This document shows positions 48,936 to 54,936 of a DNA stretch of 64,000 nt, piece by piece; within the stretch, counting starts at the first letter, position 1, and the number at the start of each line of letters is the position of its first letter. Below the pieces are notes generated by a model. It worked only from the letters and a program-made list of their open reading frames with translations, ran no database searches and was not told where the DNA came from. The DNA lies in NCBI GenBank assembly GCA_050173015.1, contig JBFXLE010000005.1, positions 112,194 to 176,193 on the forward strand, in the 5' to 3' direction. The position numbers were made by a program, and so were the translations under genes. Source of the DNA: Calditrichaceae bacterium (GTDB lineage: Bacteria > Calditrichota > Calditrichia > Calditrichales > JBFXGD01).

Positions 48936-51125
<2,190 letters not shown>

Positions 51126-51132
51126 ACCCGGC

Positions 51133-51265
51133 TGCTAACACCATATATAAATAATGGCGGGGCTTGCAGCGTATTAAAGCGTTCTGCCCCGCCATTAACT
51201 TTTGTGGCAATTTGACGGGATTCAGCCCCGAAGTCCGCCACTACACATATGCGTAACCGTTAAAT
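51133..51265 (+). repeat. attC-like site 6
   Basis: TGCTAAC-acCATATATAAATAATGGCGG...CCGCCACTACACATATG-cgtaacc-GTTAAAT. Confidence 0.85.
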
Positions 51266-51407
51266 TGATTATCAATATTGCGTATATCAAGGACATTTAC
51301 CCGGAAAAAATACGCGGTTCCGCTCTTTTAATTGCATCAATTCGTTCTGGTTTATAGGTTTTCATTGAGTCCTACGCCGATTTGCTCACCTCCGGTTAAA
51401 CCCAATC

Positions 51408-51559
51408 CGTAATGCGCCGAATTACTTAGCAAAACTCTTAGACCTTATTTTTGTTATCTTTAACCTTAGTAGAATAAACGCGACAAAAATACAAAACCTT
51501 ATTATCTTATCCGCTTTACAAATCAGACTAGCAATCTTTCATACATTTTGTATCCAGCT
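51408..51559 (+). repeat. Diverged ~150-bp direct repeat, copy 2
   Basis: Colinear with 40814-40964. Confidence 0.85.
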
Positions 51560-51700
51560 CGTCGTTCTCTCCCTGAACAAACCCAAATCGTCCGGGGAAT
51601 AGAAACCCGCCTATCGATTGGCGACAAAATAGAGCAAAGCATAAATTGAGCATAGTAAACGGGAAAAAGATTACGAGCCTGACCAAAAATATATAAACAG

Positions 51701-52765
51701 ATAATAATATCATCCCTTTGGGGTTAGATATAATCAATGTACCATTTAGCTACAATAATTTCAGCCCTTCGGTATTAAATAAACCAAATCAAATCCCGAA
51801 AGAATAAAAATATCTATTTGAATGGCTTGAAGAATGATGCCACCCCTCCGGGGTTTGGTATAATCGATAAACCATATATCTATAATAATATCAGCCCTTC
51901 GGGCTTATAAAACCAAACCAAATCCCGATGGGATGACGTGATTATAGGTGAAATAACCAACAAACTAAAATCCCAAAGGGGTGACATGATTATAGGATGA
52001 GATATTCACAAAATATAAACCCCGAAGGGGTGAGATTATTATAAAGGGGAGATTATTGTAGAGATGAGATAACCACAAAATCCAAAATCCCGAAGGGATG
52101 ATATGATTATAGATGTGACAAGATTGAAAAAAACAAACCACAAAATCCAAACCCCGAAGGGGTGTCATTATTATAGAGATAATGTGATTATAGGATCAAA
52201 TAATCACAAAATCCAAAACCCCGAAGGGGTGACATGATTATAGGATGAGATATTCACAAAATATAAACCCCGAAGGGGTGAAATTATTATAGAGATGAGA
52301 TAACCACAAGATCAAAAACCCCGAAGGGGTGACATGATTATAGATGTGACAAGATTGAAAAAAACAAACCACAAAATCCAAACCCCGAAGGGGTGACATT
52401 ATTATAGAGATAATGTGATTATAGGATCAAATAATCACAAGATCCAAAATCCCGAAGGGATGATATGATTATAGATGTGACATGATTGAAAAAAACAAAC
52501 CACAAAATCCAAACCCCGAAGGGGTGCCATAATTATAGAGATAATGTGATTATAGGATCAAATAATCACAAAATCCAAAATCCCGAAGGGATGACATGAT
52601 TATAGATGTGACATGAATGTAAAAAACAAACCACAAAATCCAAACCCCGAAGGGGTGACATGATTATAGATGTGAAATGGTTATAAATGTGAGATGATTA
52701 TAAAGAACGAACAACAATATCCCGAAGGGTTGACATTATTATAGAAGTAACATTATTATAGGGTT
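51701..52765. repeat. Left REP-like palindrome array (4 reverse + 14 forward copies)
   Basis: Unit AAA(C/T)CCCGAAGGG(G/A)TGACAT(G/T)ATTATAG with a period mostly of 48-68 bp. Confidence 0.95.
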
Positions 52766-52812
52766 GACGTGGTTATGGGTGATGTGTTTTATAAAAATCC
52801 AGGGAGGACGAT

Positions 52813-53277
52813 ATGTCCGGAACGTATTCACAAATCTACATACATATTGTTTTCGCCGTAAAAGGCCGTGGAAATATCATATCCAAAACATGGCAAAACG
52901 AATTGCATAAATATCTAGCAGGTATCATTACCAACAAAGATCAAAAATCAATTATTGTAAACGGGGTGTCAGACCATGTTCATGTGTTTGTTGGCTTAAA
53001 GCCTTCAATGCCTGTTTCAGATTTGGTTCGAGATATAAAAAACAACTCAACCAATTTTATAAATAAAAAAAATTTTGTGAGCGAAAAATTTGCATGGCAA
53101 GAAGGTTACGGCGCTTTTTCATATGGTCATACACAAATTGAACAGGTATATAATTACATATTAAATCAGGAAGAACATCATCACAAAAAAACATTCAAAG
53201 AAGAATACATGGAATTTCTTCGAAAAAACGAAATAGAGCATAATGAAAAATATCTATTTGAATGGCTTGAAGAATGA
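52813..53277 (+). CDS. tnpA: IS200/IS605-family HUH Y1 transposase (REP-associated type)
   Basis: YIHIVFAVKGR, DHVHV (HUH), WQEGYGAFS, YILNQEEHH (Y1); GGAGG RBS; no tnpB. Confidence 0.95.
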   Translation: MSGTYSQIYIHIVFAVKGRGNIISKTWQNELHKYLAGIITNKDQKSIIVNGVSDHVHVFVGLKPSMPVSDLVRDIKNNSTNFINKKNFVSEKFAWQEGYGAFSYGHTQIEQVYNYILNQEEHHHKKTFKEEYMEFLRKNEIEHNEKYLFEWLEE

Positions 53278-54080
53278 TGCCACCCCTTTGGGGTTTGAGA
53301 AAGACTATAATCCATCTAGCTATAATAATATCAGCCCTTCGGGCTTAAAAAAAACCAAACCAAAATCCCGAAGGGGTGACATGATTATAGGATGAGATAT
53401 TCACAAAATATAAACCCCGAAGGGGTGAGATTATTATAGAGATAATGTGATTATAGGATCAAATAATCACAAGATCCAAAATCCCGAAGGGATGATATGA
53501 TTATAGATGTGACATGATTGAAAAAAACAAACCACAAAATCCAAACCCCGAAGGGGTGCCATAATTATAGAGATAATGTGATTATAGGATCAAATAATCA
53601 CAAAATCCAAAATCCCGAAGGGATGACATAATTATAGATGTAAGACGATTATAAAGAACAAACAACGAAGACCAAAATCCCGAAGGGATGATATGATTAT
53701 AGATGTGACAAGATTGAAAAAAACAAACCACAAAATCCAAACCCCGAAGGGGTGTCATTATTATAGAGATGAGATAACCACAAGATCAAAAACCCCGAAG
53801 GGGTGACATGATTATAGATGTGACAAGATTGAAAAAAACAAACCACAAAATCCAAACCCCGAAGGGGTGACATTATTATAGAGATAATGTGATTATAGGA
53901 TCAAATAATCACAAGATCCAAAATCCCGAAGGGATGATATGATTATAGATGTGACAAGATTGAAAAAAACAAACCACAAAATCCAAACCCCGAAGGGGTG
54001 CCATTATTATAGAGATAATGTGATTATAGGATCAAATAATCACAAGATCCAAAATCCCGAAGGGATGACATTATTATAGA
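53273..54080. repeat. Right REP-like palindrome array (2 reverse + 12 forward copies)
   Basis: Same unit and spacer classes as the left array. Confidence 0.95.
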
Positions 54081-54081
54081 T

Positions 54082-54153
54082 GAAGAAAAATATTTGAAAT
54101 CAGTACGTGGTGATAATTACATTGATAATAAAAAAAAGCAAACCGATATATGA
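54082..54153 (+). pseudogene. Possible 3' remnant of an isoprenylcysteine carboxyl methyltransferase-family gene
   Basis: EEKYLKSVRGDNYIDNKKK resembles the EE..L....G..Y..Y C-terminal motif; starts abruptly at the array end. Confidence 0.4.
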
Positions 54154-54270
54154 CAACAAATTAAACGCGAACGCGTAACAGCGTTTGCGCCGGCTGATAA
54201 TTACGAAACCCGCAATCTTAAACCATTTATACACGTAAACATTTACCAATCAAAAAAGACCGGGAAGAAC

Positions 54271-54936
54271 ATGACACTAAAAGAAACACTTGAACAGCTT
54301 AAATCGCTAAGCGATGAAAAGACAAGAGCCTACAATATTAAGAATGGTGTAGGCGAAAATCAGTATGGTGTAAAACTCGGCGACCTCCGAAAGGTGGCCA
54401 AAAAGATAAAGACAAACCATGGCCTGGCCATTGAATTATGGGAAACAGAGAACTTCGACGCGCAAATGCTGGCAATGCTCCTCATCAAACCAGATGAACT
54501 TAAAGCCGGTGAATTGGATGCGATGGTGCGCTCTGTGAAATATACCCGGGTGGCGGACTGGCTGAACTCCTATGTGGTGAAACTCCACCCTGACAACGAA
54601 ACACTACGCCGGAAATGGATGAAGGACGCCAACCCCATGGCAGCCCGCGCAGGCTGGAACCTGACTTCCCAGCGTGTAGTAAAGAATCCTGAAATGGTAG
54701 ATATACCGGCATTACTTGACCGTATTGAAAGCGAATTGGCTGCAGCCGCTCCGGAAGCGCAGTGGACCATGAACTTCTGTCTTGCCGAGATAGGCATCAA
54801 CCATTCCGGGTACCGGCAGAGGGCCATTGATATTGGAGAAAAGTTGGGTGTGTATCGCGACTATCCCGTTTCAAAAGGTTGTACATCACCATTCGCCCCA
54901 ATTTGGATAAAAGAAATAGTTAGCAGACAAGAGTAA
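54271..54936 (+). CDS. DNA alkylation repair protein (AlkD-like HEAT repeat)
   Basis: GVKLGDLRKVAKKIK.NH.LA.ELW, QWTMNFCLA.IGI, KGCTSPFAPIWI. Confidence 0.8.
   Translation: MTLKETLEQLKSLSDEKTRAYNIKNGVGENQYGVKLGDLRKVAKKIKTNHGLAIELWETENFDAQMLAMLLIKPDELKAGELDAMVRSVKYTRVADWLNSYVVKLHPDNETLRRKWMKDANPMAARAGWNLTSQRVVKNPEMVDIPALLDRIESELAAAAPEAQWTMNFCLAEIGINHSGYRQRAIDIGEKLGVYRDYPVSKGCTSPFAPIWIKEIVSRQE

Follow-up and report, generated by a model that had tools for sequence, protein, structure and literature searches.

The described systems closest to the locus reported here are the insertion sequences (IS) of the IS200/IS605 family, such as IS608 and ISDra2; REPtrons, in which a RAYT (REP-associated tyrosine transposase) or TnpA-REP enzyme is paired with repetitive extragenic palindromes (REPs) or bacterial interspersed mosaic elements (BIMEs); and subclass 1.2 of the Y1 HUH enzymes. 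BIMEs are clustered REPs in alternating orientation, the subterminal hairpins of IS608 have the same orientation at both ends, and the TnpA dimers of IS608 and ISDra2 are solved structures. Subclass 1.2 was described by Quentin et al. (2018, BMC Genomics, PMC6006769), and the parts of that paper available to us give the motifs DH[IV]H, WQ and YIKNQKEHH (Y---Q--HH), a length of 148 amino acids, a conserved C-terminal part, about 1.7 copies per genome that are 36% identical to each other, an occurrence in Cyanobacteria and Bacteroidetes, and no associated REPs. The automatic REP search described there required GTAG or GTGG 0-2 nt 5' of a 7-20-bp stem. Here we analyse a 64,000-nt stretch of DNA from a Calditrichaceae genome (the window, to which coordinates refer unless a contig is named; genome G000, contig C5), in which an intact tnpA gene lies between two arrays of 26-nt hairpin+tail units, array 1 upstream and array 2 downstream. 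The locus is probably REPtron-like, with a Y1 HUH enzyme of subclass 1.2 (class 1, IS200-like) at its core and the unit as the cognate DNA of this enzyme.

At the locus, the unit consists of a 5-bp hairpin, A-Y-CCC-GAA-GGG-R-T, followed by the tail GACATGATTATAG. The pattern AYCCCGAAGGGRTGACATGATTATAG, allowing up to three mismatches, matched 26 times, exclusively on the plus strand (expected 0.00 from 100 shuffles), with 14 forward units in 51922-52744 and 12 in 53365-54079. Six reverse units accompany them, four within 51700-51905 and two directly 3' of tnpA. Three of these have recognisable tails (51750-51774, 51880-51905 and 53320-53345), and the tails on the remaining three reverse hairpins (51712-51724, 51842-51854 and 53282-53294) are degenerate. 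Pattern search and reading thus reproduced the 26 forward and six reverse units of the original prediction, which had been made from the letters of the window alone. The absence of tnpB that it had claimed was also upheld: the gene is intact and encodes 154 amino acids, and no open reading frame of TnpB size adjoins it.

The TnpA protein matches the profiles Pfam Y1_Tnp (3.4e-26) and NCBIfam transpos_IS200 (5.4e-21). It carries D54-H55-V56-H57, W95-Q96 and Y115-I-L-N-Q119-E-E-H122-H123 (YILNQEEHH). In an alignment of 70 sequences, H55, F93, H123 and E131 are invariant and L136 is nearly so, and D54, H57, W95, Q96, Y115 and Q119 are kept in at least 90%. The placement among Y1 subfamilies that had been proposed as a check was carried out, and by its sequence TnpA belongs to TnpA-Y1 subclass 1.2 within the IS200-like class 1. 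Close relatives are publicly named either 'IS200/IS605 family transposase' or 'REP element-mobilizing transposase RayT'. The AlphaFold model has a mean pLDDT (predicted local distance difference test) of 96.2, including a helix at 128-138 of high confidence, and the structures closest to it are those of ISDra2 and IS608 TnpA (E 4e-8 to 1e-6); the E. coli TnpA-REP structure 4er8 ranks 30th (3.7e-5). A sequence search of solved structures returned IS200/IS605 transposases only, and these weakly (about 1e-3).

A homodimer model of TnpA scored 0.74, compared with 0.00 for the best of three controls. Of proteins solved as one-chain pairs, 20 of 30 attained this mark, as did one of 23 solved as single chains; these counts hold only roughly, as our own alignment served as input. 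Runs agreed in at least 68% of contacts with a partner pLDDT of at least 76, and the predicted dimer forms via a merged beta-sheet with interface residues 2-10, 62-72 and 96-108. Since the dimers of IS608 and ISDra2 TnpA have been solved, this result may reflect likeness to those structures rather than independent evidence. In the representative library we also came across proteins of about 290 amino acids composed of two tandem subclass 1.2 domains (P0121, P0123, P0130, P0136 and others). In three of the four that were read, HUH and Y---Q--(Y/H)H are present in both halves; the first half of P0136 is degenerate. Judged by their sequences, such proteins would be natural covalent dimers.

Homologous loci, too, link the unit to the enzyme. 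A scan of one genome per species yielded 297 stretches encoding homologs, of which the best 80, with proteins 65-77% identical to TnpA, were used; together with 11 loci from relatives of G000 they make up a set of 91. The best 80 come from Bacteroidota, Chloroflexota, Nitrospirota, Ignavibacteria, Lentisphaeria and others. A locus was counted when a tail matching at least 10 of 14 positions was found within about 3 kb of the gene. By this measure 78 of the 80 loci have at least one hairpin+tail unit, and in the full set 84 loci have at least one and 61 at least three. The family consensus of about 27 nt reads 5'-A-A-Y-CCC-GNA-GGG-R-T-G-nn-A-nn-ATTATAG-3', i.e., a hairpin and a 14-nt tail ending in RTAG. 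Conservation among 443 distinct units begins at the A that precedes the stem (97%), includes tail positions 1, 2, 5 and 8-14 and falls off past G14; the 5' flank beyond position -1 is merely A-rich. Of 445 GNA hairpins at the 80 loci, 175 have an RTAG whose end lies exactly 14 nt 3' of the stem. The statement of the original prediction that a tetranucleotide was not evident thus has to be withdrawn, as RTAG is present at a fixed distance, albeit 3' of the stem.

The homologous loci also share a cassette. Upstream of the gene, an outer ATCCC-GAA-GGGAT hairpin with a full tail is followed after about 25 nt by an inner ACCCC-GAA-GGGGT hairpin a few bases before the ATG, such that outer and inner units are about 50 nt apart; 3' of the stop codon lies the mirror image of this two-hairpin module. 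By loop orientation, forward-forward/gene/reverse-reverse is the commonest layout (19 of 78 loci), and many partial versions occur. Of 220 intervals between same-strand neighbours, 141 measure 49-53 bp. The 131-bp unit of the locus described further below, a T-type followed by a C-type hairpin, matches this two-hairpin end module plus an extra tail.

In 312 units, the fourth stem pair covaries (T-A 160, C-G 133, G-C 6, A-T 1, non-Watson-Crick 12), which points to a folded single strand. Of these units, 227 have a GAA loop, and 250 fit GNA. According to the available parts of two studies, d(GNA) triloops closed by C:G give DNA mini-hairpins of exceptional stability and tolerate CC..GG stems (PMC3201870; PMC13037366). 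The top strand of the unit carries C-GNA-G and the bottom strand TNC; with a d(GNA) loop on the top strand and none on its complement, the unit has the properties of a strand-specific single-stranded substrate. Considering this loop along with HUH-Y1 chemistry, the top-strand hairpin is the likely substrate of TnpA. Note that single units folded as DNA with ViennaRNA differ little between the strands, at -3 to -4 kcal/mol (z about -1.7 to -1.9). The special stability of GNA loops is missed by standard folding parameters, and these values thus speak neither for nor against a strand asymmetry.

A genome-wide count of the motif, likewise proposed with the original prediction, found 72 copies of the unit in G000 by regular expression, 27 at the locus and 45 elsewhere. 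None of the 45 dispersed units lies in a stop-free frame of at least 150 codons, compared with 346 of 400 random positions; the dispersed units are extragenic. In 33 of the 45, the tail terminates with GTAG; at the locus, 26 of the 27 tails have ATAG instead. The dispersed units are embedded in composite modular intergenic repeats along with other hairpins (GACCCCGTCGGGGTC) and simple GTTAAGAG runs, and these mosaics are often tandem and often situated at contig ends. G000 and its sister G001, a member of the same genus, both bear a heavy load of tandem intergenic mosaics with periods of about 200-970 bp (for example C4:196200-198300, C34:24400-27000, C10:1-1300 and C15:48700-49600). The GACCCCGTCGGGGTC hairpin yielded 72 two-strand regular-expression hits, about 36 sites, and simple runs of GTAGGAAG occur in the mosaics in addition to those of GTTAAGAG. 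A larger, REPIN-like fold is also possible within mosaics if the left arm of the unit pairs with a distal TCGGGATT. When empty and filled sites were to be compared, for which two of five chosen regions were queried against G001, one 2-kb intergenic query from G000 gave 132 matches in G001, and repeats hid the unit boundaries.

With a stricter pattern, 41 related genomes were searched. G000 had 69 matches, G001 28 and G003 18, the other 38 had none or one, and reversed-pattern controls gave none in the 41 genomes. Orthologs of TnpA at 50% identity or more are encoded in nine of 40 relatives, mostly one in each; that of G003 is 67% identical. In G001, a diverged array of 68% identity occupies the orthologous site by the DUF5916 gene, where it follows the 3' end of that gene, at a contig end. 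The DNA_alkylation-family gene that lies between array 2 and the DUF5916 gene in G000 (54271-54936) found no match in G001 by DNA query, and the array directly abuts the DUF5916 ortholog there. Together, the 78 of 80 loci, the covarying stem, the restriction of many copies to G000, G001 and G003 among the 41 genomes and the arrays described below for other family members support the view that TnpA and the unit belong together.

The tnpA gene is present as a single copy in G000 (100% identity), besides three paralogs with 33, 36 and 32% identity. A plasmid collection contained no close homolog of TnpA (best match 50.6%, on a 602-kb replicon), and neither did a phage collection (matches of at most 28%). 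The paralogs (L010-L012) are located at C4:46019-46432 (+), C10:10663-11064 (-) and C22:62127-62528 (+) and all are of the Y---Q--HH subclass 1.2 type; that on C4 has an in-frame TAA, and that on C10 reads EHVY at the position of the HUH motif. Each is bordered by tandem sets of palindromes quite unlike the GNA unit, namely CCCACGATT..ATCGTGGG, ACCCATGACT..AGTCATGGGT and AAACCGAT..ATCGGTTT at the paralogs on C4 and C22 and long inverted AACCTTATTTTG...CCTTAGTAG elements at the one on C10. These distinct palindromes suggest one cognate set for each paralog. A stretch resembling the C10-type repeat, gaccttatttttgttatctttaaccttagtag ... aaaaccttattatctta, is found at 51430-51520, just 5' of the locus.

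The features of the locus are as follows, in the order of their coordinates.

51700..51774, minus strand: right-end module, oldest copy, with two reverse units, one consisting of tail 51700-51711 and hairpin 51712-51724, the other being unit 51750-51774 with a decayed stem (read from the sequence; regular expression for 51750-51774).
51791..51802, plus strand: truncated forward hairpin aaatcccgaaag, interrupted by the tnpA-end remnant (read from the sequence).
51806..51840, plus strand: tnpA-end remnant, the last ~32 nt of the coding sequence and the stop codon, a relic of a second gene copy (by its match to 53246-53391).
51838..51905, minus strand: right-end module, second copy, with hairpin 51842-51854 and the full reverse unit 51880-51905.
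51922..52744, plus strand: array 1, 14 forward units with a 13-14-nt tail ending in TATAG, in modules of 48-51, 64, 67, 68 and 75 bp.
52745..52795, plus strand: three degenerate hairpin-less tails, from array 1 to the ribosome-binding site (read from the sequence).
52813..53277, plus strand: tnpA, encoding the 154-residue Y1 HUH enzyme assigned to subclass 1.2.
53265..53345, minus strand: right-end module of the intact tnpA, with inner reverse hairpin 53282-53294 and outer reverse unit 53320-53345.
53365..54079, plus strand: array 2, 12 forward units, with two exact 200-bp blocks in common with array 1.

The tail of the inner reverse hairpin at 53282-53294 overlaps the tnpA stop codon. A right-end layout like this one was seen by eye, without a tally, in most of the 80 homologous loci. 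The genes adjacent to tnpA encode a catalase-peroxidase, a DNA_alkylation protein and a DUF5916/CBM9 protein.

Hairpin starts are separated by 48, 49, 68, 64, 67, 49, 51, 64, 67, 64, 67, 64 and 75 bp in array 1 and by 49, 67, 64, 67, 65, 64, 51, 64, 67, 64 and 67 bp in array 2, and Tandem Repeats Finder reports periods of 48-50, 64, 67 and 131. The 131-bp higher-order unit is made up of alternating 64- and 67-bp modules. When the arrays are split after each ...TATAG, four module types emerge (49, 51, 64 and 67 bp). The 64-bp type starts with a decayed hairpin-less tail and the 67-bp type with an intact one of 17 nt; AGATAATGTGATTATAG is present within each 67-bp module. Array 1 and array 2 differ in the succession of their module classes, with the qualification that the order of near-identical modules is that of this assembly alone. 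In full agreement with the original prediction, the spacing classes of about 49, 51, 64 and 67 bp, the 131-bp unit, the hairpin-less tails in the spacers and the shuffled class order were all found.

Clear marks of ordinary recombination or duplication are also present. The stretch 51806-51948 matches 53246-53391 at 87.7% over 146 nt, a match that covers the last ~32 nt of tnpA, both reverse units and the first forward unit, and is best seen as the relic of at least one earlier tandem gene copy at the locus. The older right-end module matches as well (51742-51772 and 53312-53342, 90%). The longest exact matches between the arrays, both of 200 bp, connect 52283-52597, where they overlap, with 53430-53629 and 53757-53956; they may reflect recent conversion or duplication, or be a trace of repeat assembly. 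The duplicated gene end, like the 131-bp units and the 200-bp blocks shared exactly, shows that ordinary recombination, duplication or slippage also acts at the locus. In four public metagenome runs, contigs covered pieces of about 60-260 nt within the arrays, and none spanned an array; the joints and loose ends among them are as expected for repeats in metagenome unitigs. In run X1, the one with the best match, tnpA (52793-53044) appears in two versions, on contigs with no differences and on contigs with 6-8, and the sample may therefore contain another close strain or a second allele.

Arrays are not peculiar to G000. Runs of at least four same-strand units are present in the flanks of 24 of the 80 homologous loci, so that homologs do not lack such arrays, a possibility that the original prediction had raised against itself. 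One example is a Saprospiraceae locus on a 3.0-Mb contig (L062), where 14.3 copies with a period of 50 lie upstream of the gene and two reverse hairpins follow it, succeeded by 8.5 copies, again with a period of 50. This is the same array-gene-array layout as in G000. The one-contig genome G003 harbours a pure, intergenic nine-unit array of alternating 53/54-bp variants (C1:754791-755244, L108), and as it is 145 kb from the tnpA gene of that genome, arrays can exist away from the gene. Hairpin-less tail duplications are also found in L052, L093 and L095, and the arrays of G001 and G003 as well as array 1 of G000 end exactly at ...TATAG.

How could such a locus have arisen? The ancestral cassette would have consisted of two forward units about 50 nt apart, tnpA and two mirrored reverse units, and in G000 the two-hairpin left-end module would have been multiplied head to tail, giving the arrays of 14 and 12 units that flank tnpA. 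A TnpA dimer may bind folded top-strand hairpins on single-stranded DNA and cleave and rejoin at the tail end. As each module ends in the same site, new modules would be placed beside old ones, and unequal recombination or slippage might then amplify multi-module blocks such as the 131-bp unit. Array building by TnpA itself is the inferred step of this proposal.

Several observations weigh against this explanation. The 131-bp units, the shared 200-bp blocks and the duplicated gene end need no TnpA at all, and a crossover inside the shared 26-nt unit can shuffle modules. The putative cleavage site is placed only from where conservation and arrays end. Among the 443 distinct, interrelated units, no IS608-style guide covariation between 5' flank and tail was detected (maximum mutual information 0.08 bit). 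Flank layouts vary and include reverse-gene-reverse (4 of 78 loci), reverse-gene-forward (3 of 78) and others, so that the cassette structure is not rigid. In G001, the TnpA query matched no ortholog despite 28 units, in an assembly that is 94% complete, consists of 320 contigs and has the array at a contig end. Conversely, the relatives G007, G026, G012, G031 and G002 have an ortholog and none or one match to the strict pattern, from which it follows that dispersal and arrays are lineage-specific.

In principle, tnpA and its hairpin ends could also constitute an autonomous IS200-like insertion sequence that moves as one cassette, the arrays being passive satellites produced by slippage or unequal crossing-over and TnpA being inactive on single units. 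Sequence and fold both place the family in class 1, and the occurrence of 65-77% identical proteins in Bacteroidota, Chloroflexota, Nitrospirota, Ignavibacteria and Lentisphaeria along with the patchy distribution among relatives (nine of 40) suggests horizontal movement. The tandem gene-end relics resemble tandem element copies, and recombination typically leaves repeats of higher order and exact blocks such as those of 200 bp. On the other hand, the ends are inverted in the commonest layout and not in the same orientation as in IS608, there are 45 gene-free dispersed units, the array of G003 is 145 kb from the gene, and the plasmid and phage collections hold no close homolog (50.6% at best and at most 28%, respectively). 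Moreover, tnpA is present once in G000 with paralogs of 32-36% identity, whereas IS copies are near-identical as far as the available parts of PMC6006769 describe them. Taken together, we regard an autonomous insertion sequence as unlikely.

A second alternative assigns the units to gene expression. On the minus strand, they would function as short terminators or stabilise RNA, and as promoters pointing outward; the arrays, as stacks of such signals, would have an insulating effect on tnpA and the genes around it, and the link to TnpA would be no more than historical. Two counts support this and at the same time detract from the REPtron-like interpretation: 23 terminator-like sites were predicted where 3.1 were expected, nearly all of them minus-strand units (ACCCCTTCGGGGT followed by a T-rich run), and 24 promoter-like sites where 13.0 +/- 3.4 were expected, nine of them minus-strand TTGATC-18-TATAAT. 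In addition, the complement of the most strongly conserved tail positions is TATAAT, the inner reverse hairpin of the family lies directly past the tnpA stop codon, and the G001 array follows the 3' end of the DUF5916 gene. However, most family members come from Bacteroidota, whose main promoters are not known to use TATAAT, the part resembling a -35 element is not conserved in the family, where the 5' flank is A-rich, and the stems have just 5 bp. The G-N-A loop with its free middle base is a signature of DNA mini-hairpins, as far as described in the available parts of PMC3201870 and PMC13037366, and no known RNA motif. Furthermore, the tight link to one enzyme ortholog is left unexplained. 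All this makes a mainly regulatory function improbable, although a secondary role of the units in transcription, as known for REPs, is possible. The repeat RNAs suggested in the original prediction received no support: an Rfam scan of 51000-54600 with E up to 1 returned no family at threshold, and the scores for mir-186 (23.8, gathering threshold 70) and Acido-Lenti-1 (17.6, gathering threshold 37) are at chance level.

A CRISPR-like (clustered regularly interspaced short palindromic repeats) or otherwise spacer-acquiring array, or an assembly artefact, is barely credible: 26-nt direct repeats with 22-41-nt spacers superficially look like the former, but recurrent spacers, of about four related classes, are incompatible with this reading, and the three adjacent genes, those of the window that were scanned for cas, are not cas genes; an artefact might be suspected where public runs cover the arrays by short contigs only, yet like arrays exist in the one-contig genome G003 and on the 3.0-Mb contig of L062, and the sister species G001 has a diverged homologous array at the same site.

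The interpretation of the locus as REPtron-like has consequences beyond G000. Subclass 1.2 is a large and widespread group: in a 50%-clustered library we counted 10134 representatives at E<=1e-3 and 175 at E<=1e-30, and a 90%-clustered search gave at least 8000 candidates. In the available parts of PMC6006769, it is described as IS200-like without IS behaviour and without a DNA partner, and it now has a conserved partner of 27 nt. The 5-bp hairpins cannot satisfy the 7-20-bp stem criterion given there, so these units would have been missed. The small size of the GNA mini-hairpin thus explains why earlier searches did not find the partner. Together with the two-hairpin end module of about 50-nt period and the recurrent arrays, this unit offers a concrete substrate for biochemistry, and with it the REPtron idea reaches class 1 enzymes in addition to those of class 2. 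The GNA mini-hairpin is much smaller than the REPs described so far and would be the most compact recognition element known for this enzyme superfamily. If it is true that the enzyme builds arrays, this would represent a protein-driven route to tandem satellite DNA in bacteria. The repeats are of practical relevance, too, as they break short-read assemblies and many G000 contigs end in them, which matters for the reconstruction of genomes from metagenomes. These aspects should be of interest to those working on HUH enzymes and on bacterial repeats. A generalisation, put forward tentatively and with considerable doubt, is that subclass 1.2 enzymes may be dimeric recombinases of single-stranded DNA whose whole recognition and cleavage module is a d(GNA) mini-hairpin plus RTAG tail of about 27 nt. 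Each inserted module of about 50 nt would recreate the target at its own 3' end, so that modules would be laid head to tail into satellite arrays and intergenic mosaics, with several paralogous enzyme-hairpin pairs per genome.

Compared with subclass 1.2 as described in the available parts of PMC6006769, TnpA agrees in its motifs, a length of about 150 amino acids, the C-terminal part, low copy number and a paralog identity of about 36%. It departs from that description by the conserved partner unit, the two-hairpin end module and the arrays, and it widens the taxonomic range given there to Chloroflexota, Nitrospirota, Ignavibacteria and Lentisphaeria. No later description of a partner of subclass 1.2 was found in the open literature, a search that did not extend to the supplements of the 2018 paper and to subscription journals. 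Subclass 2.6 and class 3 Y1 genes are similar insofar as weak, non-GTAG flanking hairpins with copies elsewhere were detected manually; their Y motifs (YIH[QN]NP and YV..EQ) and longer proteins set them apart, a comparison that is based on the descriptions in the available parts of PMC6006769 and not on the hairpin sequences.

With IS608 and ISDra2, the locus shares the best sequence and fold matches and the predicted merged-beta-sheet dimer, and by analogy with them recognition of hairpins on single-stranded DNA would be the expected chemistry. Unlike the IS200/IS605 elements (subclass 1.1), the tnpA gene is not present in several near-identical copies, tnpB is lacking and the ends are mostly inverted (forward-forward, gene, reverse-reverse). 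Guide-like covariation 5' of the unit hairpin, expected from IS608, was not detected among the 443 distinct units, which are related and thus not independent of one another.

The closest resemblance is to REPtrons. As in these, a single-copy Y1 gene sits between inverted palindromes, copies of the palindrome are extragenic and both dispersed and clustered, and enzyme and repeat appear to co-evolve. The three G000 paralogs are each flanked by other palindromes. The differences concern the enzyme as well as the DNA. In contrast to REPs, which have GT[AG]G 0-2 nt 5' of a stem of at least 7 bp, the unit at the locus has a 5-bp stem with a GNA triloop, and its RTAG is located 14 nt 3' of the stem and not at the 5' foot. 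Unlike in BIMEs, all 26 array units are on one strand, head to tail, and family clusters are spaced at about 50 bp. The Y motif of TnpA is Y---Q--HH and not the Y---NP of class 2 RAYT/TnpA-REP enzymes, and E. coli TnpA-REP is drawn as a monomer, whereas the model of TnpA supports a dimer (available parts of PMC6006769 for class 2 and E. coli). Of the 'distinct TnpA-driven array-building system' originally predicted, array building by the enzyme is retained as a possible, inferred contribution and 'distinct' is given up: this is not a wholly distinct system, but the REPtron layout combined with an enzyme subclass that had already been described.

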